DNA of 64,000 nucleotides from an uncultured Ruminococcus sp. GTDB taxonomy: Bacteria > Bacillota > Clostridia > Oscillospirales > CAG-272. The stretch lies in assembly GCA_902782445.1 (NCBI GenBank), contig CACZNC010000001.1, positions 9,939-73,938 on the forward strand, in the 5' to 3' direction. Below are positions 52,305-64,000 of the stretch, piece by piece; the stretch's first letter is position 1; every line of letters starts with the position of its first letter. The translations under genes and the position numbers were made by a program. Under the pieces are notes generated by a model. The model was not told the origin of the DNA. It saw only the letters and a list, made by a program, of their open reading frames with translations, and ran no database searches.

Positions 52305-52392
52305 TCTGCGCTCCCATATCTGTTTCGCGGCGGAATCGGGCGGACGGCGATACCTCCGGGGAAACAGATCGTCAATCGGATTTTCAAACGGT

Positions 52393-53256
52393 TCAGATCA
52401 TTTTATAGAGTTCGAAGCAGGTATGCCCTTTCGGGACGTCTTCGAGTTCGCCTCTGAGCAGATAGCCGTTCTTTTTGAAGAAATCGACGTTCCAGTCGCC
52501 TGCGGTCGTCAGGATCATGGACGCGCCGTTTTCCCTTGCACAGTCTTCCGCTTCCTTCAAAAGAGCAGTGCCCAGCCCCCGCAGTCTCAGCGGCTCTTCC
52601 ACGAACAGCGCGTCGACAAAGCCATACGCGCCTTTATTCACGTCCGCGATCATGCCTGCCGCTAACCTGCCGTCCCTGTCAACGAGCTTCTTGGTAAGCC
52701 CGACCCTCTCGTATTTCGGCTCGTAGGCTTCGTCGTATTTATCAAGGCCGGCCTCTATCGCGTCCGCGTCGTCCTCATTGCCGAAGGAAACCCGGAACCG
52801 CGCGCCGCCGTTGTTGGTCGGCACATAGTCCGGCGTGTCCCTGTCGAGGTACTTGACCAGGGAATAATCGGTATGGCCGTTTGCCTTTTTCAGCGTCGTA
52901 AAGACCGTGTAGCCGTGTTTTTCATAGAACGGTCTCGCCATGTAACTGGCGGTGCCCAGCGTCACGACCCGACAGCCTTTTTCACGCGCGATCCGCTCCA
53001 CCTCCCGGAGGATCATGGAGCCGATCCCCTGATGCCGACAGCGTTCGTCCACCCAAAGCTCTTCAAGCAAGACTCTCGCCCAGCGGTATTCGTATGCTTC
53101 CGCGATGCAGCCGCCGATGATCTCCCCGTTTTCGTTCTCGACTTTGAGGACGAATTCTTCGGCCTCCGCGTCCACTTCGTGCGGCACGATCTCATTGATC
53201 TTTTCGCCGATATATGCGGCTTCTTCTTTTGTCAGGTCCTCGATTGCATAATCCAT
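52393..53256 (-). CDS. Tandem-domain GNAT N-acetyltransferase
   Basis: Two acetyl-CoA motifs (RHQGIGSMILREVERIAREKG and LRGLGTALLKEAEDCARENG). Confidence 0.85.
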   Translation of the reverse strand: MDYAIEDLTKEEAAYIGEKINEIVPHEVDAEAEEFVLKVENENGEIIGGCIAEAYEYRWARVLLEELWVDERCRHQGIGSMILREVERIAREKGCRVVTLGTASYMARPFYEKHGYTVFTTLKKANGHTDYSLVKYLDRDTPDYVPTNNGGARFRVSFGNEDDADAIEAGLDKYDEAYEPKYERVGLTKKLVDRDGRLAAGMIADVNKGAYGFVDALFVEEPLRLRGLGTALLKEAEDCARENGASMILTTAGDWNVDFFKKNGYLLRGELEDVPKGHTCFELYKMI

Positions 53257-53295
53257 TTTTGTCTTCTCCTCAAAAAGCGGATTGGCTTGTTGATT

Positions 53296-53424
53296 TTATC
53301 CGTTTTTCAGACGTTCCGTGTCTTCGACCTCATGCGGAACAGAAATGAAGTCCTTCTTCTGGCGGCACAAGCAGCAAACAATTTCGACGTCGTTTTGTGT
53401 GTAAGGAAACTCATCGCCCACCAC
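53296..53424 (-). pseudogene. Orphan 3' fragment (42 codons) of a RumA/TrmA-family RNA (uracil-5)-methyltransferase gene
   Basis: Hand translation VVGDEFPYTQNDVEIVCCLCRQKK... fits the C-terminal D-x-F-P-x-T-x-H-x-E-x-V-x-L motif (E. coli RlmD ends DMFPHTGHLESMVLF, from memory). In-frame TGA immediately upstream at 53425-53427, where the AT-rich DNA begins. Confidence 0.45.
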
Positions 53425-54802
53425 TCAACAAAGAAATGTTGAGATTATTCTATTATATTTTCTTCGCCGTGTATTCGTTAATTAGAGAGACCACACTATG
53501 CATTACTGATTCGTTCTCTTTAATCTTTTTTATACACTCTATTGCATAACTGATGGCTTGTTTTTGTGAATTGTTAAGTGTAAATTGAGATGGCATCGCT
53601 TGCAAAATGGCTAAACAATCAACGGTGTCTTTAACATCTTCTGCTAAATATTCATGAGGAACATCAATGCCATCAAGTGAATAATCTTTATACTTCCTTG
53701 GTGTTGCATTGCTGATTTTAAAGATCATATCATTGCAATCGCCTTCATAGTATGTGAAAATCCTCTTTGCAAACACTCTCTTTTCGATGCTTTCTTTGAT
53801 GTTCTTCCCCAACAGATAATTTAAATATGATTTATGGCTTTTTGATTTAATAATAGGGTATAGGGAATCAAAGAAATCCGATAGATGTTTTATTGACTTC
53901 CAAGTTCGGATATATCTTCCATTAAGATTGTATTCATTAATCGGCTTATTTCTTCCTAGATTGCCTCTTTCTAATGCAGTCCCATGAAGAATATTCTCAG
54001 ATTTTGTAACCCATTCCAAATTATCTATACATGGATTTGATCGATCTTCGTCGATATGATTAACAAGCGGTTTGTCATCAGGATTTGGAATAAACTGTTT
54101 GGCAACCATAATATGAGCTAATCGGAAGATAGTTCTTTTTTCAATGCGTAAAATATGCGCACGATATCCATTGTGCAAAGTGCCATTGATTATTCTATGA
54201 GTGAGCTTATTGCGAATTTGCCCCATTTTGTTGATTTCATATTGACTGTCCGGAAACTCTATTAGCGGATAAAAGATAAAATACTCTTTGGGTTTCTGGA
54301 TGCCTGTCTCTTCAAAATATTTTTTTGCGGCAAACTCTCCATTGTCCCACGATATATTGTCCAAGGAACAATTATCAGCATTTCCATCAAGATGTATTAA
54401 ATCAGTATAAGAATGAGAACCATCATTGAGCATAAAGGTTTCAGCGACTAATTCGTCAATGCGTCTGGATTTCTTTTCTCCATTCTTATCTTCTAAAGTT
54501 CTAAATACTGCACCATTAGCACCATTTTTTTGTAGGCTTAATATTCTCCCTGTTTTTATACTTCGCAATTGACCATAACGACTAATTTCATATTCTGGGT
54601 ATTCTGCTAACTGGACCCAATCGCTTTTTGCACTCTTCAATTCATCACACTCTTTTCATAATTTGTTGTATTGGGCAGTCATCAAAAACGCCCTTTTGCT
54701 TAGAATGTCAAAAGAAATCTTATGCCTTTCAGAACATATAGCACTTACTTTCTATGACTCATTTTTAGAATCCTTGATCCTATAATAATCCTCTGCATTT
54801 AC
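53425..54802. mobile_element. AT-rich horizontally acquired cassette carrying only an HNH endonuclease gene
   Basis: Hand counts of 60-nt lines give 17/60 and 19/60 G+C here, versus 40/60 in purL. Sharp composition switch at about 53425 and about 54830. Confidence 0.45.
53453..54640 (-). CDS. HNH homing-endonuclease-like protein with two NUMOD4+HNH_3 modules and an IENR/NUMOD1-like tail
   Basis: WVQLAEYPEYEISRYGQLRS + HLDGNADNCSLDNISW. Then FPDSQYEINKMGQIRN + VNHIDEDRSNPCIDNLEWVTKSEN. TTG start. Confidence 0.8.
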   Translation of the reverse strand: MKSAKSDWVQLAEYPEYEISRYGQLRSIKTGRILSLQKNGANGAVFRTLEDKNGEKKSRRIDELVAETFMLNDGSHSYTDLIHLDGNADNCSLDNISWDNGEFAAKKYFEETGIQKPKEYFIFYPLIEFPDSQYEINKMGQIRNKLTHRIINGTLHNGYRAHILRIEKRTIFRLAHIMVAKQFIPNPDDKPLVNHIDEDRSNPCIDNLEWVTKSENILHGTALERGNLGRNKPINEYNLNGRYIRTWKSIKHLSDFFDSLYPIIKSKSHKSYLNYLLGKNIKESIEKRVFAKRIFTYYEGDCNDMIFKISNATPRKYKDYSLDGIDVPHEYLAEDVKDTVDCLAILQAMPSQFTLNNSQKQAISYAIECIKKIKENESVMHSVVSLINEYTAKKI

Positions 54803-54828
54803 ATCTATCTCAACATAGTCCCTTGGCC

Positions 54829-56508
54829 TTACACATATTTGCTCAAGCAACATACCGTCTCAACGTGTGATCCATCGTCCAAACTCAAAATCATATCCTC
54901 CTTGATGATCGGGAGCCTGAAAGTGATGGATTTCAGCCACTGACCGTTCGGCTGTCTTTCCTTGTACACCTCGATTTCGGAGATCAGGGCTTCCATCATC
55001 TTTCGCTTTTCGAGATCGGACATCTTGGAGTACAGCTTATCAAAGTAAATCAGGATCTTGTAGATGTTGTCTCCGGTGAGCTTCTCCGCCTCGATCGACA
55101 TCTTCTTCGCTCTGGCTGTGATAAGCTCGGATTCGGTGTCGTCTATCTTATCATACATCTTATACAGCCGTTCGTCAAGATCTGTTTTTCTCCTGGTGTA
55201 ATGTTTGTCGTCAGGATCGAGCGAATCGATCTCGTCGAGCAGCCTTGCCTTCAGGGAATACTGCTGACGAAGTTGCTTCTCGAGGGCGGTTATTTCTTCT
55301 TCAATCGCGGCGGTATCCACCTTCATATTGATCTTTTCCTGCATCAGAGCGGCGAACTCCGGGTTGCTCACCAGTTTCATGAGAATTTCCGTCACCGCGT
55401 CGTTCAGCACCTCTTCATTGATCTGCTTTTTGTAATCGCATTTGTGTCCGCGTGTCAGATCGCGGTGCTTGCAGCCATAGTAGAAGAAGTCCTTGTATTT
55501 CGAGCCGTCCGGTTTGTATTTCGTGCATTTGTTGCCGTACATCCCGGCGCCGCATACGGGACAGCGGACGATCCCGGACAGCAGATGAACGTTTTCGTCC
55601 TTTCCCCGGTTCACGTGCTCGTATTTCTCAGCCATGACACGGAGCTTTACCTGCGCGGCATCCCAAACCTCGGGTGATACGATAGGTTCATGACGTCCGT
55701 CGACAAGGAGATAATCGTCCTGCTCGACCAGGTGGTATTCGTTGCGGGTCCCGTACACCTTTTCCGTCTTCCTTCTGCCGTATGCGATTTTTCCGCAGTA
55801 CACCGGATTGTTCAGAATCCGGCGGATCAGAGCGGCGTTAAACAGCGGATTTTTGCCGTTCTGCCGTTCGATCTTCCGAATTCCATGGTTTTCGAGATAT
55901 TTGGCAATTCCGTTCGCTCCCGAATCCGTGTGCACATACTGATCGAATATCATGCGGATCGCTTCGGCCTCCTCTTCGTTGACGATCAGTTCGCCGTTCT
56001 CCAGCTTGTAGCCGTAAGGAGCGAAACCGCCATTCCATTTGCCTTCCCGGGCTTTCTGGATCCGTCCTTCCATCGTCTGAACCCGGATGTTCTCGCGTTC
56101 GATCTCCGCTACGGCGGAAAGCACGGAGATCATCAGCTTCCCGGCGTCTTTTGAGGAATCGATCCCGTCCTCAACACAGATGAGATTGACGCCGAAATCC
56201 TGCATGGTCTGCAGAGTGGAGAGCACATCTGCCGCGTTTCTTCCGAAACGGGACAGCTTGAACACGAGGACGAAGGACACGTCGTCTTTCCCGGTTTTGA
56301 TGTCCTCCATCATACGGTTGAACTCCATCCGTCCTTCGATGGATTTGCCGGATTTTCCCGCGTCCTCGTATTCGCCGACGATTTCAAAACCATTGAATTC
56401 AGCATAGGCTTTCATTCTGGTTTTCTGTGCATCCAGAGAGTACCCGTCGACCTGCATTGTCGTGGATACTCTCGTATAGATGTACACTTTCTGTTTTGTG
56501 TTGTTCAT
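54829..56508 (-). CDS. Large serine recombinase
   Basis: N-terminal resolvase domain YIYTRVSTTMQ..SLDAQ, recombinase domain, zinc-ribbon CPVCG..C, coiled coil. 559 aa. Confidence 0.93.
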   Translation of the reverse strand: MNNTKQKVYIYTRVSTTMQVDGYSLDAQKTRMKAYAEFNGFEIVGEYEDAGKSGKSIEGRMEFNRMMEDIKTGKDDVSFVLVFKLSRFGRNAADVLSTLQTMQDFGVNLICVEDGIDSSKDAGKLMISVLSAVAEIERENIRVQTMEGRIQKAREGKWNGGFAPYGYKLENGELIVNEEEAEAIRMIFDQYVHTDSGANGIAKYLENHGIRKIERQNGKNPLFNAALIRRILNNPVYCGKIAYGRRKTEKVYGTRNEYHLVEQDDYLLVDGRHEPIVSPEVWDAAQVKLRVMAEKYEHVNRGKDENVHLLSGIVRCPVCGAGMYGNKCTKYKPDGSKYKDFFYYGCKHRDLTRGHKCDYKKQINEEVLNDAVTEILMKLVSNPEFAALMQEKINMKVDTAAIEEEITALEKQLRQQYSLKARLLDEIDSLDPDDKHYTRRKTDLDERLYKMYDKIDDTESELITARAKKMSIEAEKLTGDNIYKILIYFDKLYSKMSDLEKRKMMEALISEIEVYKERQPNGQWLKSITFRLPIIKEDMILSLDDGSHVETVCCLSKYV

Positions 56509-56604
56509 AACTCATTCCCTGATCATACCTTTGACGCAGCGCTGCTTTCCTCTGCTATCCTCGTTCAAAAATCGGGTTTGGACACCGATTACACGAATAT
56601 TGTA

Positions 56605-56844
56605 TCATAAAATTTCGGCATTTTCAAGTGTTTTTTCAGAATGTTTGGTTTTTTTCTTACAGTCGATACGTTCTTCTTCGCATCCTTTCTTAAACCTCGG
56701 CGGATCGGGAAGACTGTCAAGGTCGATCTCCCCGGCATACTTTTCGATCATTTCAGCCAGAAAAGCCGCAAATCCGCTCCACACATCCTCATTCCACTGC
56801 ACCGTGCCGTCGTTCCTCCTTTCCTCTGTTTTTGCCCTGAGCAT
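56605..56844 (-). CDS. Small hypothetical protein downstream of mob
   Basis: 79-aa ORF overlapping the mob 3' end by 56 nt. An internal Met at 56751 would remove the overlap. No recognised motif. Confidence 0.35.
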   Translation of the reverse strand: MLRAKTEERRNDGTVQWNEDVWSGFAAFLAEMIEKYAGEIDLDSLPDPPRFKKGCEEERIDCKKKTKHSEKTLENAEIL

Positions 56845-57769
56845 ACGCCTCCAGGATCTCCCTCGGGATCCTCTCCACCGTCTTCAAAAGCTCGGCGTAC
56901 TCCTGCTCCCGCTTGAACCGCTCCATCTTCTCGGCTATCCGCTCCCGCCCGGCATCCTCCGCTTTGGCGAGCCTGCCTTTCAGCTCTTCGTTCTCTTCGG
57001 TCAGGGCTTTGTTTTTCTCGACCGCCTTGTGAAGTTTTGTCTTGAACTTCTCCACCCCCGGGATATACTCGTCCAGAAGCTCGGCGATCTCCGCGGCGCG
57101 GGATTTGGCGTTGAAGGCGTTCGTCCAGGACAGCAGCTCCATGAGCCGATCCCTCTGGGCGTTCAGGTGTACAGCCTCCTTATACAGCCGCGGCGGAAGG
57201 TGCTCCCGTCCGGTCTGGCTGGCGCTCTCTCCCCGTTCCAGCTCCGGGTACTTCTTCACCATGTGCTTCCAGAACTCGTCCTGCCACCAGATCAGCTTCT
57301 TCTTGTTCCCGACAATATCCTTTGCTGACAAGCGTCCGTCCTCAGTCAGCGGTACGAAGCAGAGGTGCATGTGGGGCGTCTTCTCATCCATGTGCACCAC
57401 CGCGGAGATGATCGTCTTCTCACTCTGATGGGCTTTGACGAAATCCAGCGCATAGGCGAAGTATTCCTTGACCTCTGCTTTCTTCTTTCCCTTGAAGAAC
57501 GCCGGGCTTGCGGTGACGAGGGCTTCGACCACCCTCACACTGTCCGATCGGGTTCTGCATCCGGCCTCCGCGATCTGTCTTTCAGCCTCAGCCCGGTATT
57601 TCCGATCCGGCGTCACAAGGTGGAAGTTGTACTGACTCCGGCTGGTGTCCACATCGGGATTGCTGGCATACTGCTCCTTCGTGCGTTCGTTGTGTGCTTC
57701 GATGTGTCCGATCTCCGGTCCCTTGTATTTGGCAAACCGGAGGATTCCGTACTGTGCCTTTCCCATCAA
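56789..57769 (-). CDS. mob: MobV-family relaxase (plasmid recombination enzyme, Mob_Pre)
   Basis: N-terminus ILRFAKYKG..IGHIEAHNER and the HMHLCFVP histidine motif typical of Mob_Pre relaxases. Confidence 0.9.
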   Translation of the reverse strand: MMGKAQYGILRFAKYKGPEIGHIEAHNERTKEQYASNPDVDTSRSQYNFHLVTPDRKYRAEAERQIAEAGCRTRSDSVRVVEALVTASPAFFKGKKKAEVKEYFAYALDFVKAHQSEKTIISAVVHMDEKTPHMHLCFVPLTEDGRLSAKDIVGNKKKLIWWQDEFWKHMVKKYPELERGESASQTGREHLPPRLYKEAVHLNAQRDRLMELLSWTNAFNAKSRAAEIAELLDEYIPGVEKFKTKLHKAVEKNKALTEENEELKGRLAKAEDAGRERIAEKMERFKREQEYAELLKTVERIPREILEAYAQGKNRGKEERRHGAVE

Positions 57770-58023
57770 TCCCCCTCCTTCTTCTGCCAGACGATCCTGT
57801 AACCCAGAATGTCGGCCAGCTCCACGACCTCATGATACCGGATGGAATCCCGGCTCAATTTGGCAGAGAAATTCGATACGCTATCACTCCAGCCGTATTT
57901 TTCAGCCAGAGTCGCCACAAGCTCCTGCATCGTGAGCCCTTCGCGGATGATGTGCGCCTTGATTTCGCTCCGTGCGCCGGGATGGATTTTTGGACGGATG
58001 GTTGGATGGTTTGTGTTTTTCAT
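57766..58023 (-). CDS. Small DNA-binding-like accessory protein upstream of mob
   Basis: Start MKNTNHPTIRPK with AGGAGG RBS. 85 aa. ATGA-type overlap with the mob start. Confidence 0.55.
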   Translation of the reverse strand: MKNTNHPTIRPKIHPGARSEIKAHIIREGLTMQELVATLAEKYGWSDSVSNFSAKLSRDSIRYHEVVELADILGYRIVWQKKEGD

Positions 58024-58120
58024 GAATGGTTCCTCCTGTGATTTTCGATATAATGAAACGGTTTCTCTGTATAGCGGTGAAAACCTTGTATTTACTGTGT
58101 TCCGGCGTGAACTCCAAAAG

Positions 58121-58184
58121 ATCCATCCCAAGCATCCCATATATACCGCGCCGATTCGGGACGTTTGGGATGGATGGGATGGAT
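58121..58184. repeat. Inverted and tandem GGGATGGAT repeats (candidate oriT/operator)
   Basis: ATCCATCCCA-AGCATCCCA ... 27 nt ... TGGGATGGAT-GGGATGGAT. Intergenic, upstream of the accessory-mob operon. Confidence 0.45.
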
Positions 58185-58200
58185 AAATCAAAGTCCAGCG

Positions 58201-59493
58201 TCATAACATTGTAGGCGATATCAGACCTTCGATCCCCCAGAATCCGTTGACCCGCTTGCCTTTGCGGTTCATAATGTGATTGTCGTGTTCCAACCGGAAC
58301 TCTGCCGCGTGCTTATTGAGTGTTGAACTCACGGTCCGGGCGGACAAGGGCTTCATGGCGTTGTCCTCACACCATTGCTTGTAAATCGCATAGAGATCGG
58401 CGGAGGGGATCGTGCTGTCCGCTTTGAGCCGGATATATCCCTCCGAACGGAGAAAGGGGATCACATTGTCAGCATCTTGTCGGGCTTCCTCCCGGTTGGC
58501 CTTTGTCTGCTCGCTCTCGGTGAACCGGAACCCGTTCTCCGTCAGCCTCTTTAGTCCCGTGAGACACCAGAGGAAGATTCCCTCGGCCTCGGCGCAGAGC
58601 TTGTCCGCGAGGAAGGGATCGTCCTCCCGGCCTTCCGGCTTTTTCTTCACCGACAGGATCAACTGCCGACGGAAGAACCCTTCGGAATGGTCATACAACG
58701 CCTGCAAGTCTCCGTTTGAGAACGCGAGGAACCGGACATACATCTCGCCTTGATAGCTCTGCTCCCCCTTCTTTTCGAGATCCATCGGCATTTCCGCCGT
58801 AATGAGGGATTTGAGATAGTGCGTCGATTTCAGGGCTTCCATCTGCATATCGTCGTCCACCATGCAGAGCTCATGCTCCAGATCGGCCCGGGCAAACGGA
58901 CTGTGCTCCACTTTGGCGATACTGCCGTTTTTCAGATTGTCACCGAGCAGAGCCCGCATCACGATCCCGATCCGCGACTTGCCCTCGCCGCCGCTGCCCT
59001 TGAGAAGAAGCATCGTCTGGCCCCGGGTTGTCGGGATCAGGCAGTAGCCCATATACTCCTGAAGCGTCATCGCATCCTCATATTCCAGAAGGTCCTCAAT
59101 AAACAGTATCCATTTCGCGGGCAGGTCTGCGCCGGGATTGTACGCCACCGGCAGGCGGTTCCGGCAGAACTCCTTGTCCGTCGTGAATCTCATGCCGTCG
59201 AGAAATAGTGTTCCATTGGCCACATGGAGCCGGTCCGTCTGGACAGGCAGATCCGGGCTGAACGCTTCAAGCCGCAGGGTGTCCAGCAGGTTCTTCACCT
59301 TCTTCGCGGCTCCGGTACTGACATAGGGTTTCAGCAAATCGTACATCTCTTTTCCGATCCGGGCTTCGTCCGTGATCCGCCCCTCCGTCGTGAAAAAGCT
59401 GCCGTTCACACAGATCATGGGGTGATCCGCCAGATAGTCATGACAGAAGAGCGTTTCGAACAGGTGCTTTCCGTCATACCAGACCGGGAGCAT
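58201..59493 (-). CDS. P4/D5-family primase-helicase (phage/plasmid primase C-terminal NTPase)
   Basis: Walker A GSGGEGKS, Walker B-like MVDD. The ORF extends to a TTG at 59592 (56-nt overlap with the upstream gene). ATG 59493 with a GAGGAG RBS is preferred. Confidence 0.85.
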   Translation of the reverse strand: MLPVWYDGKHLFETLFCHDYLADHPMICVNGSFFTTEGRITDEARIGKEMYDLLKPYVSTGAAKKVKNLLDTLRLEAFSPDLPVQTDRLHVANGTLFLDGMRFTTDKEFCRNRLPVAYNPGADLPAKWILFIEDLLEYEDAMTLQEYMGYCLIPTTRGQTMLLLKGSGGEGKSRIGIVMRALLGDNLKNGSIAKVEHSPFARADLEHELCMVDDDMQMEALKSTHYLKSLITAEMPMDLEKKGEQSYQGEMYVRFLAFSNGDLQALYDHSEGFFRRQLILSVKKKPEGREDDPFLADKLCAEAEGIFLWCLTGLKRLTENGFRFTESEQTKANREEARQDADNVIPFLRSEGYIRLKADSTIPSADLYAIYKQWCEDNAMKPLSARTVSSTLNKHAAEFRLEHDNHIMNRKGKRVNGFWGIEGLISPTML

Positions 59494-59536
59494 CTCGTCC
59501 ACGATCTCCTCTTCGGTTTCTTCCTCCGTCCCCGGA

Positions 59537-60136
59537 TTATCTGCACGCAATGCTTTCTTCTTTTTCACGAATGCCCTCCAAATATTGTTCAAGCTCCCCG
59601 ATCTTTCCTTCCTCCTTCATGCTGTTCACAAGCTCACGCTTCGTCTTCGTGTCCGCGGCGATCAGAAGATCCACCATATACGTCACCGGCTCCATCATCC
59701 GGCAGGCTTCGAGAAACCGGGGATGAGGAGTTTCATCCTCGGAGTTCGGCGCATATCGTACCTTCCACCCTCGCAGCAGTTCCAGAAAGTCGGTAAGTAC
59801 CCTGAAACAGCGACGTTCCTCATCGAGGGTATCCTTGTACGTCCGAAGGCGTTCCATCACAGAAACGGGGTAATTACCCCCGATTCCGAAGTCTTCCGTG
59901 AGTCTCCGCGCCGCCTCCCCCGGCGAGAGCCCCGTCAGCTTTGCCGTGAGGGTAATCACATCCCCGCTTGCACCGCATCCGAAGCAGAAGTAGTAATCCT
60001 CATTCAGCTTCATGCTCGGGTGCCGGTCGTCGTGGAAGGGACACCGGGCCATCCCTTTGCGGTCGAAATCCAGTCCGTACCGCTCCGCCGCCTGCTTAAT
60101 CGTGACGGCGGATTTCACTTTTTCATAGATCGTCAT
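59537..60136 (-). CDS. CHC2 zinc-finger (primase-type) protein
   Basis: CPFHDDRHPSMKLNEDYYFCFGCGASGDVI. Confidence 0.85.
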   Translation of the reverse strand: MTIYEKVKSAVTIKQAAERYGLDFDRKGMARCPFHDDRHPSMKLNEDYYFCFGCGASGDVITLTAKLTGLSPGEAARRLTEDFGIGGNYPVSVMERLRTYKDTLDEERRCFRVLTDFLELLRGWKVRYAPNSEDETPHPRFLEACRMMEPVTYMVDLLIAADTKTKRELVNSMKEEGKIGELEQYLEGIREKEESIACR

Positions 60137-60247
60137 GCGATCCTCCTTTCCGACGATTTTTCACCGTCTATATACACTTTACGGAATCCATCCGCCCGAA
60201 AAGGAGATTTTGGCAGAAGTGCAGAAAAGAAAAAATCCTTCCCCGGA

Positions 60248-60267
60248 AAATTGCAGAAATGCAATTT
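60248..60267. promoter_or_regulatory. Palindromic operator candidate
   Basis: AAATTGCA-GAAA-TGCAATTT perfect 8-bp arms in the divergent control region. Confidence 0.4.
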
Positions 60268-60347
60268 CAGGGCGGGAGCACTGGATTCAACTCAGAAATC
60301 AAGATTAACAGTCGTGATAAATCGACGCAAAATGACAAGAAAATCTC

Positions 60348-60376
60348 TTGACAGAGAAATTTGTTCATGATATAAT
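60348..60376 (+). promoter_or_regulatory. Sigma-A type promoter of the XRE-sigma operon
   Basis: TTGACA-17 nt-TATAAT. Confidence 0.6.
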
Positions 60377-60413
60377 AATATTGAAAGTCAAAGAAGGAGG
60401 CTATTTGTCGAGA

Positions 60414-61241
60414 ATGAATGAACGAAACTATCTTCCGGGCACGATCAGGGAACGCTTACAGGAGCTGATGAAGAGAAGGCATATCAAGCAGGCGGATCTG
60501 GCAGAAAAGATCGGGGTGGACAACGCGACCCTCAGCCGCTTCATCAACGGCAAGACGGACAAGATCAGCCCCGACGCCATCGTCCGCATGGCGAAGGAAT
60601 TTGAAGTCTCCACGGACTTCCTGCTCGGGGTGGTGAACGATCCGGCACGGAAGAATTACGACATCGGGGAGATCGGCTTGACCGTGGACGCCGCGCGGAA
60701 CCTGTACACAGGAAAGGTCAACGCCGACGTGGTGAACCGCCTGCTGACGAACGACCGCTTCGCCGATACTGCGGATCAGATTGCCCTGTACCTCGAAGAC
60801 CGCCTGGCCCGGGGTGTGGCAGCACAGAACGAGATTTACGGACTGGCCTGCAATCAGTTGAAAAAAATCCCGGACGCAAAAAAAGATGCGGACGAAATCC
60901 ACAGCTGGATCTCAAATCCGCATCGGGACGAGCTGAACGGGATTACAAGTTCCTTTGAAGCCTCACTCCGGGAAATCAAGAAGGAATACGGTTCGGACAA
61001 TCTGAAAGAGACGCAGGTGATGAGCCGGGAGATCACGCGGGGAATGTACGCCGAGGTCATGAAAGGGCGGGACATCCGCGATCCAAAGCTGACGCCGGAG
61101 GAATATGTGGATCGGGTGTGCGTGTATCTCACAACGAGTCAAGGCATATCGGAAACCTTGCTGAAACCGTTCCGATGGGTGTTGATCTTCCTTTTGAAGC
61201 TCTTCGGCGGAAAGGCGGCTCATGGACAAATCAACGACTAA
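60414..61241 (+). CDS. XRE-family HTH transcriptional regulator with long C-terminal domain
   Basis: Start MNERNY with AAGGAGG RBS. HTH IKQADLAEKIGVDNATLSRFINGKT. Confidence 0.85.
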   Translation: MNERNYLPGTIRERLQELMKRRHIKQADLAEKIGVDNATLSRFINGKTDKISPDAIVRMAKEFEVSTDFLLGVVNDPARKNYDIGEIGLTVDAARNLYTGKVNADVVNRLLTNDRFADTADQIALYLEDRLARGVAAQNEIYGLACNQLKKIPDAKKDADEIHSWISNPHRDELNGITSSFEASLREIKKEYGSDNLKETQVMSREITRGMYAEVMKGRDIRDPKLTPEEYVDRVCVYLTTSQGISETLLKPFRWVLIFLLKLFGGKAAHGQIND

Positions 61242-61884
61242 CGAAGAGCTCTGTCTCGCAGCTCAGAACGGCGACGAAGAAGCCGGCAACCTCCTGATTG
61301 AGCAGAACGCCGGGTTCATCGTCATGACCGTCCGGTCCGTGCTCGGTCTGTTTGGAATCAAGCCCTGGGAAATCGGGCTGACCTATGACGACCTGCTTGA
61401 AGAAGGGCGGATCGGGATGTGGAAGTCCATAGCGAAGTACGACCCGGAGAGCGGGGCGAACTTCCTGACCTATGCGAAGCCGGCAATCCGACACGCGGTG
61501 ATCGATCTCATCCGCCAGCAGCGGCAGGACATGGAAGCGCTGTCCGACCGGATCACCGTCGAAGCACTGGAAACCCGGTACAGCGAGGGGCAGCGGTACA
61601 CGGTCTGGGACGATCTCGCCGAAATGCCGGACATAGTCGGCGATCCGTTTCATCAGTCGCCGGAGCAGATCTACATGGAAAAGGAACTGATCGAACGCCT
61701 GTACCGCGCACTGATCGACGTGGGTGAGCGGAGCGGCACCTATCTATGCTACCGCTTCGGGTTCGACGACGGGGACGAGCATTCCGTCCGGGAAACCGCG
61801 GAGCATTTCACGATTACCGAAACCATCGCAAAATCCGTGGAAAGAACCGCGCTGGCTGAGATGCGTCGGGAAATGGCGGGATAA
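61222..61884 (+). CDS. Sigma-70 family RNA polymerase sigma factor (MGE-borne)
   Basis: Region 2 (DDLLEEGRIGMWKSIAKYDP..FLTYAKPAIRHAVID) and region 4 HTH (SVRETAEHFTITETIAKSVERTAL). Confidence 0.85.
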   Translation: MDKSTTNEELCLAAQNGDEEAGNLLIEQNAGFIVMTVRSVLGLFGIKPWEIGLTYDDLLEEGRIGMWKSIAKYDPESGANFLTYAKPAIRHAVIDLIRQQRQDMEALSDRITVEALETRYSEGQRYTVWDDLAEMPDIVGDPFHQSPEQIYMEKELIERLYRALIDVGERSGTYLCYRFGFDDGDEHSVRETAEHFTITETIAKSVERTALAEMRREMAG

Positions 61885-61921
61885 GGGGAACGGGGGAACG
61901 TCGCCGCGGCGGGAGTATATA

Positions 61922-62296
61922 CCTTTCGATCCCCCGGCGTCGTGACTCATGCCTCCGTCATGAGTCCGAGCCTACACACACCCGGAGGGGAATCACAGGC
62001 TTTCACGCCCACGATTCCCCTCCGTTCTGCTGTCATCGGAAAGACTCTGCGTCTCTCGCGCATCCCCTTTCCGCTCCCAGCGGGATCCAAAGGTATAACA
62101 CACTAGACTTTCACGGAAAGTCGTGTGCCAAAAGGAACGCTGTCCCCTTTGGATTCCTCTGCCACGAAACCTCCGGTTTCTTTGGATTCTTCCGGCCAAC
62201 AGAGAGCCTCCCGCCCCCTATTGGATGACCCCGGGCAAAGGGGAGCGCCCCTTTGAAATCCCCCGCCTAAGAATCCGGTGAGAATCTTTGGAGTCC
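61922..62296 (+). repeat. Iteron-like YCTTTGGADTCY repeats interleaved with perfect hairpins (non-coding)
   Basis: Direct copies at 62146, 62179, 62250 and 62285. Inverted copy at 62084-62094. Degenerate copy at 61922. Hairpins at 61944-61966, 61983-62024 (12 bp), 62097-62130, 62236-62255. Confidence 0.45.
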
Positions 62297-62472
62297 GCCG
62301 TCAAAATGGCATACGTATGCACGCAGATCTATCTAACAGAGATTGCAGTGATCCAGCCACGTACATGTTCATGGCGGCGTTGTGGGCGATTATCTCACGG
62401 CAGCTTGCAGGGGAAGAGGTTCGGGGTGGGGGAAGATACCAGATTGGCGATAATCCGCGAAGAAGTCGTTGA

Positions 62473-63747
62473 TCAGTTGTTCCCCCAAAACGCCCGCAGG
62501 TATTTCTCGTCGAGGATCTTGTTTTCGGCGCAGTATTCGATCACGTGTTCCACATAGTTCTTCAGCGTTTTTTCGTCAAGCCCGATTGCTGCCAGTTCTT
62601 CGGGCGTCATCCTCACGATCTTCTCCCATGTGTAAATTGCTCCGTCGAACATGTACGCTGTCGGGTTTATCAGCTTTTCCTTCATATCGTTTTCATCCAG
62701 GAACAGTGCGGCGATGTACTCGTCCGTCAGGATCATGTCGTCCCCCAGTTTCTTCCGCTCCTCGTTGAGCGTGGTCAACTGCTCCCGGGTAATGCCCAGT
62801 TCCCGGACGGTCTGCACCATCGTCGGCAGGGCGTTCTGTTCGTCGATTGTTTTTTTCAGGAATATGTTGTTGACCCAGTCGTTCAGCCGTTCTTCTTCGA
62901 TGATTGGGGTTTCCCCGTGGTACAGCTTTTCCAGATAGGCGATGTTGTACGTGATGTCCTGATATTCCCTGTTGAACGCGGATATTCCTCCGACCGCAGC
63001 GCTCTGCTCATAGAAGAGCGTTTCCAGTCTGCGCAGACTGGCGTAGCTGTCGGCTCCCCCTGCGACGTCAAGCCCGCTCATGGTCATCCGCAGCGTGGGA
63101 TCGATCAGGCGCGAGACAATGGCGGCCACCTCCGAGCGGCGGACTTTCGATTCCGGGAAGAAGCTTCCGGCTTCGTCCATTCCCGTCAGCACGCCTGCTC
63201 GGTAGAGACGGTACACATTCTCGGTGTTCTGCAAGAAAGGCAGGTCTGGGATGGCGTTGTCCACAACCGCGTTGATCTCTGCTAGTTCATTTACCGGCAA
63301 GGCGCGGGATAAAAGAGATGCACACTCGATCCGGAAGGCAGGCTGTGTCACATCTCCGGGTTCACCGGGCTGGATTCCATTATCCATGCAGTACTTGACG
63401 TACCCATAAAACCACGGCTTGTCCGCCTGATTGTCATATCCGTCAGCAGCCTCCGCAGAACCGGTGTGATAGATCGCGTGGATCCGCGCGGTGACGGTAT
63501 AGACCTCGGCGAGCGTGATGTCTGACTCCGGTGCGAACCGGTTCCCGCCCACGCCGATCATCAGGCCGGTTTTCGAGATACTCTTTACGTACGGCGCGAA
63601 CCAGTCCCCAGATGAAACGTCCGTGAAGGTCAGCGCTTGCTTATCGCTCATGAAGTGTGCAAGACTGCCGTCCGTCGCAAAGGCGGCAAAGGGCAGGATC
63701 AAAACGGACAAAAGAAATGCCGTCAGTAAAGAAATAATGCGTTTCAT
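62473..63747 (-). CDS. Secreted SLH-domain protein
   Basis: Signal peptide MKRIISLLTAFLLSVLILPFAAFA. SLH-like FTDVSSGDWFAPYV...GNRFAPESDITLAEV. Confidence 0.75.
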   Translation of the reverse strand: MKRIISLLTAFLLSVLILPFAAFATDGSLAHFMSDKQALTFTDVSSGDWFAPYVKSISKTGLMIGVGGNRFAPESDITLAEVYTVTARIHAIYHTGSAEAADGYDNQADKPWFYGYVKYCMDNGIQPGEPGDVTQPAFRIECASLLSRALPVNELAEINAVVDNAIPDLPFLQNTENVYRLYRAGVLTGMDEAGSFFPESKVRRSEVAAIVSRLIDPTLRMTMSGLDVAGGADSYASLRRLETLFYEQSAAVGGISAFNREYQDITYNIAYLEKLYHGETPIIEEERLNDWVNNIFLKKTIDEQNALPTMVQTVRELGITREQLTTLNEERKKLGDDMILTDEYIAALFLDENDMKEKLINPTAYMFDGAIYTWEKIVRMTPEELAAIGLDEKTLKNYVEHVIEYCAENKILDEKYLRAFWGNN

Positions 63748-63770
63748 AGTATCCTCCAGTTTGAAGTCAT

Positions 63771-64000
63771 TTACTGATGCTCCGCCAGCCAGATCGACAC
63801 GCGGGACTGTATATTCTTCATGCAGGTTTCCCGGTTCTGTCCCCCTCCCGTAAAGGCGGAAATCTCTTCCTGAATGATGGCAAGAACATCCGCCGGAGTA
63901 TAGTCCGCGACAGGGATTGCGGCCGCTCCGTCCAACAACGCGTATACCCGGTCGAGGTAGTCCGGCGTGACGTCGATCAGCAGTCCGTCCAATCTCTGAG
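63771..64000 (-). CDS. C-terminal part of a solute-binding-type lipoprotein paralog (5' part beyond the window)
   Basis: Frame is open to nt 64000. The tail EEISAFTGGGQNRETCMKNIQSRVSIWLAEHQ parallels EEISTYLGGLGSAEDCAGKIQSRVSIWLAEHS of the 24931-27324 protein. Confidence 0.6.
   Translation of the reverse strand, partial: QRLDGLLIDVTPDYLDRVYALLDGAAAIPVADYTPADVLAIIQEEISAFTGGGQNRETCMKNIQSRVSIWLAEHQ

Follow-up and report, generated by a model that had tools for sequence, protein, structure and literature searches.

Pseudo-SCC elements and SCC composite islands of staphylococci are located at rlmH (orfX). Accretion with decayed elements and with CIMEs, which carry no integration or transfer genes, has also been described (PMC5704250), and rumA is an established serine-integrase site (PMC5357655). 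Here we describe a locus from an uncultured Ruminococcus sp., found in a stretch of 64,000 nucleotides of contig CACZNC010000001.1 (hereafter, the window), in which a nuclease gene lies beside a mobilizable element. The HNH cassette locus is a variant of known accretion biology: on balance, we read positions 53389-54853 as a recombinase-less, att-bounded cassette (CIME- or pseudo-SCC-like) carrying a selfish homing-type nuclease within an array at rumA.

Organization of the locus

Along the minus strand, the order is rumA (outside the window), a 13.4-kb element, a core, the HNH cassette, a degenerate core and a GNAT cassette. The following features were delimited:

54860..64000, minus strand: the part of the mobilizable element that lies within the window (whole element, 13.4 kb)
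54829..56508, minus strand: large serine recombinase gene (559 aa; Pfam Resolvase, Recombinase and Zn_ribbon_recom)
54854..54864, minus strand: att core copy 1 (11 bp, GTTGAGACGGT, coding for VETV), the island end and left boundary of the cassette
54764..54853, minus strand: frameshifted remnant of a replacement tail for the upstream gene (intact form in locus L175, ...VETVVCLSNKNAKPKDYVEIGVNAEDYYRIKDSE-stop)
54656..54682, minus strand: start of a deleted HTH_26 (Cro/C1-type) gene (first 8 codons, MTAQYNKL-stop)
53389..53452, minus strand: right arm of the cassette, a hairpin followed by a non-coding rumA-like arm (GATGAGTTTCC...)
53378..53388, minus strand: att core copy 2, degenerate (GTCGAAATTGT vs. 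the consensus GTNGAGACNGT), the right boundary of the cassette
53296..53377, minus strand: RumA-type tail, the head of the GNAT cassette (27 codons; ...VEIVCCLCRQKKDFISVPHEVEDTERLKNG-stop (CCLCRQKKDFISVPHEVEDTERLKNG-stop))
52393..53256, minus strand: double-GNAT acetyltransferase gene (Pfam) of the neighbouring cassette

Composition and limits of the cassette

The G+C content of 53425-54828 is 0.343 (34.3%), the global minimum among all 1404-nt windows of the stretch; 41 non-overlapping windows elsewhere have a mean of 0.611 and an sd of 0.030, which gives z = -8.9. The AT-richness noted in the original prediction was thus confirmed, but at a value outside the 28-32% claimed. Host DNA (1-53000) measured 0.617, not the ~65% given there, and the neighbouring element (54829-62400) measured 0.540. 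GC3 of the HNH gene is 0.30, compared with 0.68-0.87 in adjacent genes. The patch at 53425-54828 is therefore real and foreign, although its span was redrawn: the att cores set the limits of the cassette at 53389-54853 (~1.5 kb). Compared with locus L093, the inserted segment is 53391-54843, with a 23-nt imperfect direct repeat on either side (54866-54844 / 53390-53368). Misassembly is unlikely because the repeats (11-23 nt) are far below the assembler k-mer and the identical arrangement was assembled on three contigs. A 9-bp inverted repeat (CCTTACACA / TGTGTAAGG) near both cassette ends was taken as chance, since its copies lie 9 and 18 nt from the cores and it is not kept in L175.

Apart from the HTH remnant, the nuclease is the sole ORF of the cassette; genes for recombination and transfer are absent, in agreement with the proposal that it has no recombinase of its own. 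An Rfam scan returned a single sub-threshold snoRNA match (E = 0.26), and promoter and terminator scans gave numbers close to chance (8 sites vs. 6.1 expected and 1 vs. 1.0 expected, respectively). Exact-sequence matches for the GNAT and SLH proteins were found on the same contig only.

The neighbouring element and its attachment site

The 13.4-kb element encodes the recombinase, a Mob_Pre relaxase, a D5-like primase-helicase, an HTH protein, a sigma factor, an SLH protein and others, and runs to ~68,292 (contig coordinates), where it meets the rumA gene (PF05958, tRNA_U5-meth_tr, RumA-type). An end near 62,150-62,260, where nucleotide homology to relatives stops, was considered and rejected. 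The element carries paired 9-bp inverted motifs at both ends, and these put its true left end 13.4 kb away from the recombinase end, at rumA; the cassette lies outside them. Most related elements keep AGTTTGGAC-N12-core, with the inverted partner core-N9-GTCCAAACT at the far end of the element. The core GTNGAGACNGT (VETV) in the rumA 3' end is assigned as the attachment site of the element's large serine recombinase.

Nucleotide homology of 80 related elements ends at 54836-54892, inside the last codons of the recombinase gene. The cassette supplies the last 8 codons and stop of that gene (54829-54853, CCLSKYV-stop); these C-terminal codons vary between loci, and the L093 copy ends in ...CCLYHQKKDF..EE-stop. 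An HNH homologue was present in none of the 80 genomes bearing a recombinase 76-82% identical to that of the window. Judged by these sequence limits, the cassette is not part of the island, which contradicts the suggestion of a homing endonuclease inserted into an island end: the island terminates at the att core in the recombinase gene's last codons, and the cassette lies beyond it. The proposed position between a methyltransferase tail and the recombinase gene holds, with the RumA-type tail found at 53296-53377.

A two-module HNH nuclease with one catalytic module

The nuclease ORF (53453..54640, minus strand) encodes 395 aa from a TTG start; the two closest homologues have this TTG as well, and others have an ATG at that position, which supports the start. 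The version produced by the metagenome gene caller has 326 aa, beginning at M70, and loses the significant NUMOD4 match. Since gene callers begin at M70, an exact look-up of the 395-aa protein gave no match. Its parts are as follows:

54305..54640, minus strand: module 1 (aa 1-112), NUMOD4 and a degenerate HNH-like domain
53951..54304, minus strand: module 2 (aa 113-230), NUMOD4-like and a complete HNH_3 domain
53453..53950, minus strand: C-terminal part, a beta-beta-alpha (IENR1-like) unit and then ~135 unmatched aa

The original prediction described two consecutive NUMOD4+HNH_3 modules. Residues 8-98 and 118-210 are indeed mutually homologous (BLASTP E = 1e-9, 29% identity), but the modules are asymmetric, and each profile exceeds its cut-off in one of them only. 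NUMOD4 (cut-off 23.4 bits) scored 27.8-39 bits in module 1 (residues 8-44) and 14.8 bits in module 2, while HNH_3 (cut-off 24.8 bits) scored 12.1 bits in module 1 and 36.3-37.9 bits in module 2 (residues 173-216).

The same asymmetry applies to the catalytic set of I-HmuI, a general-base His and two metal ligands, which is present in module 2 and incomplete in module 1. In module 2, N194, H195, D197, N202, N207 and N216 are invariant across 37 homologues, and N194-H195 and N216 align with D74-H75 and N96 of I-HmuI. Residues 2-104 of I-HmuI align to module 1 (E = 1.4e-11), where H83, D85, N90 and N95 are invariant and both metal ligands are missing: the D74 position is occupied by I82 and the N96 position has no Asn, with His83 kept. 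Retention of catalytic residues, proposed as a check for both modules, was therefore found in full for module 2 and fails at the metal ligands of module 1.

For the C-terminal part, including the last ~135 aa, a Pfam search returned no family match. An AlphaFold model (pLDDT 83) places a beta-beta-alpha unit at aa 234-260 and a long helix at the C-terminal end; the IENR1-like unit bears NEY..G..R.W.S, with N235, E236, Y237, G241, R245, W247 and S249 invariant. The IENR-like tail that had been proposed thus has a predicted structural counterpart and lacks a Pfam one. The top Foldseek match in the PDB was 1u3e_M (I-HmuI; E = 5.2e-9, probability 1.0), and the nuclease also matched PHROG and PADLOC HEase models. 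The assignment to the homing-endonuclease family was borne out by Pfam and by the I-HmuI sequence and fold matches.

From its conserved residues, the protein is predicted to be an HNH enzyme of the I-HmuI type in which module 2 alone is catalytic, and the duplicated module 1, devoid of metal ligands, probably serves in DNA binding only. By homology, the enzyme would be of the homing type and would nick or cut DNA in a sequence-tolerant way. The dN/dS of the gene is 0.11-0.14; it evolves by purifying selection.

As a nuclease, the protein is unremarkable and belongs to a very large superfamily. Its full-length relatives form a small family, in which ~8 clusters (50% identity) match end to end, and tandem multi-module relatives are common: many representatives have 3-6 matched stretches, and BFVD matches span 300-400 columns. 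At ≥80% coverage, 50,697 phage genomes yielded no full-length nuclease, and an IMG/VR search gave no relative above 48% identity; the relatives in phage genomes and IMG/VR are distant and single-module only.

Other copies, empty sites and decay of the window copy

In the metagenome contig L093, the same recombinase (96.6% nt identity) runs straight into the methyltransferase tail and GNAT and the cassette is missing, i.e., an empty site; L095, L099 and L163 consist of rumA, tail and GNAT, with both the island and the HNH cassette absent. A search for the element without the cassette had been suggested: the cassette occurs in 0 of 80 related elements, and L093 provides the empty-site variant. 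Neither of the two findings that would have counted against the cassette was obtained, given that it is integral to no related element and that the module 2 catalytic residues are kept. The HNH cassette was also absent from all 80 GNAT-relative loci. The window and L093 thus form a pair in which a stand-alone nuclease ORF is present or absent at a conserved locus.

The same cassette was found in a second contig, L175, in another host and with a different flank (nt identity 86.7% in the ORF and 77% across tail plus leader), where a perfect 14-bp core repeat (GTCGAGACGGTAGT) stands on both sides. These two are the att-bounded copies found, and the left flank of L175 comprises 73 nt. L173 shares just the ORF (+/- ~20 nt; 84% identity), its context being unrelated, and more distant homologues occupy at least five other contexts, suggesting that the nuclease gene also moves by another route. 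Altogether, homologues were seen in at least seven contexts, always at 31-35% G+C whatever the flank; in L174, the homologue again follows a recombinase gene end.

Comparison with L175 showed how far the window copy has degenerated. By tblastn, residues 14-35 of the L175 tail match 54829-54764 (82%) and residues 1-9 match 54867-54841 in a different frame; by blastn, 54867-54654 is 77% identical to L175. The small HTH_26 gene stands ahead of the nuclease gene in both L175 and L257, and ~210 extra nt at this point in L175 encode the same small protein; the window remnant matches the start of the 71-aa HTH_26 gene of L257 at 90%. The right end begins with a hairpin with a 7-bp stem (53424-53443), directly after the nuclease stop codon. 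The right arm and the L175 cassette arm share 65% identity, a score reached by 1 of 2000 shuffles, and the right arm is nearer to this arm than to any native rumA arm. It resembles a rumA (attB-type) half-site, not the recombinase gene 3' end expected of a classical decayed element. Its motif lies farther from the core than in other cassettes (+3 nt in the window and +4-6 nt in L175).

Read from these differences, the window copy is decaying, with its tail frameshifted, its HTH gene deleted and its right core mutated, and with an intact nuclease gene. With 3 of 11 positions of the right core off the consensus, it is doubtful that the recombinase can excise the cassette in the window, where the cassette is probably immobile. 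Neither an excised nor a circular form was seen.

A tandem array of one-gene cassettes at rumA

The tail at 53296-53420 was considered as a stump of the host rumA broken by insertions, and this was rejected. Tail and GNAT follow intact rumA in L095, L099 and L163, a recombinase in L093 and other cassettes in L097, L101 and L118. The GNAT cassette keeps the same two ends beside differing neighbours. The tail is assigned to the head of the GNAT cassette because tail and GNAT follow rumA genes that are only 32-46% identical to rumA of this host while GNAT is 75-85% identical, and because GNAT has its own downstream arm and core: in L093 and L166, it is followed by the arm GTCGATTTATTCC-N14-core and then by a further tail.

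Other one-gene cassettes occupy the equivalent position in L097, L118 and L101, as does GNAT itself, and the non-nuclease genes in equivalent cassettes are GNAT, a small acetyltransferase and an ASCH-like gene. In 10 non-coding cassette arms, the 13-nt outer motif is conserved (0.85 column majority), whereas the spacer and flank are not (0.49-0.54), and its register is that of nine intact rumA genes.

Discussion

In the reading that we favour, an intact cassette would combine a tail that replaces the end of the upstream gene with a small HTH_26 regulator, the nuclease gene and a non-coding arm resembling rumA, and would have moved between hosts as one unit. A serine recombinase acting at the cores most likely carried it in cis or recombined it in trans; homologous exchange across the conserved junctions would be an alternative means of transfer. 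The 13.4-kb element would have come later, entering the rumA-proximal junction, so that its recombinase gene now takes its final 8 codons from the cassette. The role of the nuclease is likely the selfish upkeep or spread of the cassette. Among the possibilities raised in the original prediction, a pseudo-SCC-like, non-autonomous element mobilised in trans is the one best supported, by the two cores, the L175 copy, the absence from L093 and the array; mobilisation itself is an inference, and the right-hand core of the window is mutated.

A rather unlikely competitor is a free-standing homing endonuclease gene with its own route and no part for the serine recombinase: the nuclease would cut a cassette-less rumA 3' end or junction, and repair from a cassette-bearing copy, for which the conserved junction sequences would give homology, would install the gene. 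The domain family, that of phage and giant-virus homing endonucleases, fits this route, as do the presence/absence polymorphism at the locus, the sharing of the ORF alone with L173 in an unrelated context, the AT-rich homologues in at least seven contexts and the L174 homologue after a recombinase gene end. Yet in both close rumA-site copies the common unit exceeds the ORF and ends exactly at recombinase cores, in L175 at a perfect 14-bp repeat, and equivalent cassettes hold GNAT, small acetyltransferase and ASCH-like genes, so a nuclease is not required to reach the site. The homologous left and right ends shared with L175, in a second host and beside a different flank, also make it very unlikely that the cassette is an inert scar, namely the left-end remnant of a larger serine-recombinase element decayed by deletion, with the nuclease as surviving cargo that was never a mobile unit. 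The typical element-type replacement tail at the left end, the frameshift, deletion and mutated core of the window copy, and the frequency of accretion with decayed elements (PMC5704250) all agree with such a scar; a right arm not derived from a recombinase and a nuclease gene under purifying selection do not.

Purifying selection is equally what one would expect of an HTH-regulated nuclease acting in defence, exclusion or addiction against phages, rival elements or their att sites, and retained through benefit to the host or array. The PADLOC 'HEase' matches, the islands with WYL, ArdC and lysis genes alongside in other loci, and the small Cro/C1-type HTH gene paired with the nuclease in L175 and L257, as controller proteins are with restriction genes, point in this direction. 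We consider it unlikely: a partner methylase or immunity gene is absent, the HTH gene is deleted in the window while the nuclease is intact all the same, and the PADLOC models are generic homing-endonuclease profiles. That the nuclease is a cargo gene inside the island is hardly credible and already contradicted; it directly adjoins the recombinase gene on the same strand, but it is present in none of the 80 related elements and absent from L093, and the core upstream of the cassette is where both the island homology and the paired terminal motifs stop.

Beyond the favoured reading of an att-bounded cassette, we raise tentatively the possibility of an undescribed system in gut and rumen Clostridia, suggested by sequence patterns, in which cassettes of 1-2 genes with rumA mimics are stacked and shuffled by serine recombinases in trans. 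Each cassette would carry a non-coding mimic of the rumA 3' end, with GTCGAT(A/T)TGTTYC fixed 14 nt from the core GTNGAGACNGT and a replacement tail next; cassettes would stack downstream of rumA and be shuffled by large serine recombinases from resident ICEs or IMEs. The HNH nuclease would either be a selfish passenger or act as a driver by breaking empty junctions. Such a system would be the serine-recombinase counterpart of integron cassettes or of SCC composite islands. If the wider pattern is true, the rumA 3' end in gut Clostridia would be a cassette-capture site comparable to rlmH/SCC, with a bearing on the spread of accessory genes, resistance genes included, in gut communities.

The locus is a cleanly delimited example of island growth at a serine-recombinase attachment site, with empty, island-only, cassette-only and neither-occupied states all on hand, and it suggests that a homing-type nuclease gene is able to travel as a tiny att-bounded cassette. 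It would also be useful for defining the attB and attP rules of a large serine-integrase family.

Comparison with known systems

At the protein level, the closest counterparts are I-HmuI (PDB 1U3E) and the NUMOD4/HNH_3 homing endonucleases, with the same NUMOD4 beta-hairpin ahead of an HNH beta-beta-alpha-metal core, the same (D/N)-H...N...N catalytic pattern (here in module 2) and the same beta-beta-alpha DNA-binding unit after the nuclease (here predicted); the differences are that module 1 of the cassette protein lacks both metal ligands and that its last ~135 aa are unmatched. Phage and giant-virus homing endonucleases share the stand-alone gene, the sporadic distribution and the tandem multi-module forms, but the cassette nuclease family resides in chromosomal islands. 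Phage nuclease genes at exchange boundaries (PMC10448857) likewise place a homing-type nuclease exactly at a mosaic boundary, whereas the boundary here is a site-specific recombination site in a bacterial chromosome.

At the level of the element, CIMEs (Pavlovic 2004; reviewed in PMC5704250) likewise have no integration or transfer genes, carry att-core copies at both ends (the right-hand copy being degenerate in the window) and lie in tandem, at a target gene's 3' end, with an IME that looks functional. The cassette differs in being very small (1-2 genes), with an inferred mobility, and in having a rumA-like (attB-type) half-site as its right arm instead of a recombinase gene end. The ICEs and IMEs with serine integrases at streptococcal rumA (PMC5357655, PMC4701971, PMC4120198) share the target family, recombinase class and tandem insertions; in the accessible parts of these papers, whole ICEs or IMEs are treated, and one-gene cassettes with rumA-mimic sites are not described.

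Pseudo-SCC and SCC share with this locus the type of target, the 3' end of a 23S rRNA methyltransferase gene, and a large serine recombinase, and both comprise recombinase-less units in arrays with short direct repeats that restore the gene end. Here, by contrast, the target is of the RumA/RlmD type (PF05958) rather than RlmH, the hosts are high-GC gut or rumen Clostridia, and the recombinase is not a Ccr (NCBIfam CcrB 222, CcrC 184 and CcrA 133 bits, against cut-offs of 900, 900 and 700), so the likeness to SCC is one of analogy only.

The AT-rich patch and its single gene

The G+C content of 53425-54828 is 0.343, the lowest among all 1404-nt windows of the 64 kb (z = -8.9 vs windows elsewhere in it), as against 0.617 for the host part (1-53000) and 0.540 for the neighbouring element (54829-62400). 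GC3 is 0.30 in the nuclease gene and 0.68-0.87 in neighbouring genes. The low G+C of the patch is genuine and extreme, and the original prediction was essentially right about it: the contrast holds, with hand counts of 28-32% and about 65% that were a few points off, and the patch does carry a lone gene:

53453-54640, minus strand: nuclease ORF, 395 aa, TTG start; sole ORF in the patch

The TTG start is identical in the two closest homologues, with ATG at the same position in more distant ones; this agreement indicates that the 326-aa annotation of the public contig, which omits a significant NUMOD4 match, is too short. A hairpin with a 7-bp stem, CTCAACATTTCTTTGTTGAG (minus strand, 53424-53443), directly follows the nuclease stop, with no T-run after it on that strand; the corresponding stretch shows partial conservation in homologue locus L173 and none in L175.

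The nuclease has one predicted complete active site

The Pfam matches were NUMOD4 (residues 8-44) and HNH_3 (residues 173-216), and the last ~135 residues had no family match. Scanned alone, the N-terminal third gave 27.8 bits for NUMOD4 and just 12.1 for HNH_3, and the middle third 36.3 bits for HNH_3 and just 14.8 for NUMOD4. Since the two thirds are mutually homologous (BLASTP E = 1e-9), the proposal of two NUMOD4+HNH_3 modules is correct as to their number, but the modules are unequal, with NUMOD4 strong in module 1 and HNH_3 in module 2.

In a search with the 37-member family profile, I-HmuI (1U3E) scored E = 1.4e-11 in an alignment to module 1; module 2 can be aligned to it too. With I-HmuI residues numbered on the profile alignment to 1U3E, N194-H195 and N216 of module 2 correspond to D74-H75 and N96, whose roles are those reported in the I-HmuI structure paper, and are invariant in the family. 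Module 1 has invariant His83, Asp85, Asn90 and Asn95, but Ile82 takes the place of D74 and N96 has no Asn counterpart. Catalytic residues are thus complete in module 2, whereas module 1 keeps His83 and has lost the D74 and N96 equivalents, and the gene is predicted to encode one complete active site.

The AlphaFold model (pLDDT 83) strongly matched a single PDB entry, 1u3e (E = 5e-9); among predicted viral structures, it matched long HNH endonucleases with several modules, from giant viruses and phages. A modelled beta-beta-alpha unit (residues 234-260) bearing an invariant NEY..G..R.W.S motif fits the "IENR-like" label of the original prediction.

The dN/dS ratio is 0.11-0.14 against the two closest homologues, and at most 0.28 in each part separately, indicating that the gene is maintained by selection. 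Within a very large family, labelled HNH homing endonuclease in PHROGs and PADLOC, it is an ordinary member: at E <= 1e-3 the superfamily has 130,244 cluster representatives, of which many carry 3-6 tandem modules and only ~8 match end to end. No phage genome searched had a match covering at least 80% of the protein, and IMG/VR yielded single-module relatives only, at identities of up to 48%.

The neighbouring element ends at a recombinase core

The gene to the right of the cassette encodes a large serine recombinase by profile match, and a genome scan recovered 80 loci in gut Clostridia with 76-82% identical recombinases. Nucleotide homology of these relatives to the window stops at 54836-54892, in the last recombinase codons, and the final codons vary by locus after ...GAGACNGT; we therefore place the element end at the core:

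54854-54864: element end, core GTTGAGACGGT, codes VETV; placed by homology stop and varying final codons

The recombinase C-terminus is drawn from flanking DNA, with 8 codons (CCLSKYV*) at 54829-54853 and 38 in L093 (492-606), and in L013, L018, L028, L070 and L077 it appears to run into a long tail ending GMI*.

On the extended contig, a PF05958 RumA-type methyltransferase gene lies 13.4 kb away, its product reading ...FPATRHVETV and then a long replacement tail. A 9-bp inverted pair occurs as AGTTTGGAC-N12-core at the recombinase end and core-N9-GTCCAAACT at the rumA junction:

54854-54885 (L092 5452-5480): inverted-pair end, recombinase side
about 68,270-68,296, outside the window (L092 18863-18894): inverted-pair end, rumA side

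The identical left-end motif lies 8-11.6 kb upstream of the recombinase end in four relatives. The inverted pair and the rumA junction thus define a 13.4-kb element inserted in the rumA 3' end, and because the pair marks both ends, the SLH, 790-aa, sigma-factor and DUF6061 genes count as cargo of this one element and not of a separate one. With a symmetric pair, the GA of the core would be the crossover point. Serine-integrase ICEs and IMEs are known to target rumA (PMC5357655, PMC5704250).

Block 62061-62262 within the element borders the sigma-factor gene (61222-61884), on the side of the SLH gene, and is ~4.3 kb away from the Mob_Pre relaxase gene (56789-57769). It is conserved among related elements at 72-92% identity, GGAATCCAAAGG-like motifs recur in it, and it is a candidate oriT or regulatory region. 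A second related element stands in tandem just downstream of the recombinase end in L062 (~19.7-21.4 kb), L070 (~15-19 kb), L035 and L046, so accretion at such sites is common.

Empty sites and a second copy delimit the cassette

A metagenome scan with the GNAT acetyltransferase protein as query recovered 80 loci, none of which has the HNH gene. In one of them, L093, the recombinase (96.6% nt and 98% aa identity to the window) continues directly past the core to read ...CCLYHQKKDF..., with the GNAT gene following; compared with L093, 53391-54843 is additional in the window and has a 23-nt imperfect repeat on both sides. L095, L099 and L163 have intact rumA, tail and GNAT. The empty-site variants that the original prediction called for therefore exist, without the cassette in L093 and without element and cassette in the other three.

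L175, the locus of the closest nuclease homologue (P0001), holds an intact cassette in another host. Core GTCGAGACGGTAGT comes first, followed by the open tail VCLSNKNAKPKDYVEIGVNAEDYYRIKDSE*, a gene for a small HTH_26 protein and the nuclease gene (86.7% nt); after a short arm these 14 bp recur, and a different host tail, VVLMSRKDT*, comes next. The window copy has decayed: its tail is frameshifted relative to L175, its right core reads GTCGAAATTGT, and its HTH gene is reduced:

54656-54682: HTH gene remnant, 8 codons; intact in L175

Between the two copies, the right arms share 65% identity, a score reached by 1 of 2000 shuffles, and they are nearer to each other than to any native rumA arm, so both ends belong to the cassette.

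Cassettes with rumA-like arms

The HNH cassette stands in an array of cassettes. The tail and GNAT gene (75-85% identical) follow intact rumA genes just 32-46% identical to the host rumA, and also the recombinase in L093 and small cassettes: a 0.7-kb acetyltransferase (L097), an ASCH-like one (L118) and a 1.25-kb one (L101, L104). GNAT and the preceding "methyltransferase tail" are themselves a cassette (window 52393-53377; L093 481-1610; L166 104-1200), found with the same right arm beside different neighbours in different contigs. In L093 and L166 the GNAT gene has an arm of its own downstream, and then a core and another tail; in the window, only the arm remnant IDDLFPRR is left (about 52,330-52,360), without a core.

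One-gene cassettes at rumA 3' ends have non-coding arms with in-frame stops and a 13-nt motif exactly 14 nt from the att core.

Junctions of one-gene cassettes
L093: 1524
L097: 9872
L100: 109/1697
L107: 623/2504
L146: 1070
L166: 104/1151
L167: 3921
window: 53378-53420

This rumA motif, GTCGAT(A/T)TGTTYC, stands at -27..-15 from the core in ten non-coding arms, the position it also has in nine intact rumA genes. In the ten arms, column majority is 0.85 in the motif and 0.49-0.54 in spacer and flank, which are not conserved. Judged from sequence, the arms look like recombinase half-sites, and the conserved register suggests that a protein-binding half-site is under selection. The HNH cassette arms carry the motif further out, by 3 nt (window) and 4-6 nt (L175), which would reflect either an attP-type arm or decay. 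A second recurrent arm, ...FIHAAVPRH|VETV, lies left of cores in L129 (219), L149 (7908), L169 (3596), L155 (331), L101 (2943) and L105 (1255); it does not resemble rumA and could be the 3' end of a different recombinase family. The cassettes bounded by rumA mimics are the part worth following up.

Proposed mobility of the cassette and of its nuclease gene

The HNH cassette is a discrete unit without a recombinase, bounded by recombinase cores. It lies outside the island, and none of the 80 recombinase relatives has an HNH homologue, so the suggested insertion into an island end does not fit; of the three readings originally offered, a non-autonomous element fits best, given the core-bounded ends, the empty sites and the second copy in L175. 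The cassette would move through its cores by serine recombinase acting in trans or cis, or alternatively by homologous exchange across the conserved junctions, and the nuclease may act selfishly.

A serious rival is a recombinase-independent homing route for the nuclease gene, which is found in other contexts. L173, in a SAP/WYL context, shares with the window only the ORF +/- about 20 nt (84% nt). The L174 homologue (784-1965) lies directly downstream of a tyrosine-integrase 3' end (3-335), with a sharp G+C drop in a 62% G+C host, and L257 (1-700) has HTH_26 and HNH genes with an integrase N-terminal-like fragment upstream; association with recombinase gene ends is recurring in these two. The more remote homologues are found next to a prophage lysis module, within a WYL/resolvase/ArdC island and close to contig ends. 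All homologues have 31-35% G+C regardless of flank, and these varied contexts with constant low G+C argue that the gene also moves independently, in the manner of homing-type genes.

For the core-bounded cassette as a whole, the nearest analogy is staphylococcal SCC/pseudo-SCC at rlmH, although the recombinase at the window locus, unlike that of SCC, is not Ccr. Accretion with decayed elements and CIMEs has been described (PMC5704250), and the cassette is a small variant of this known biology.
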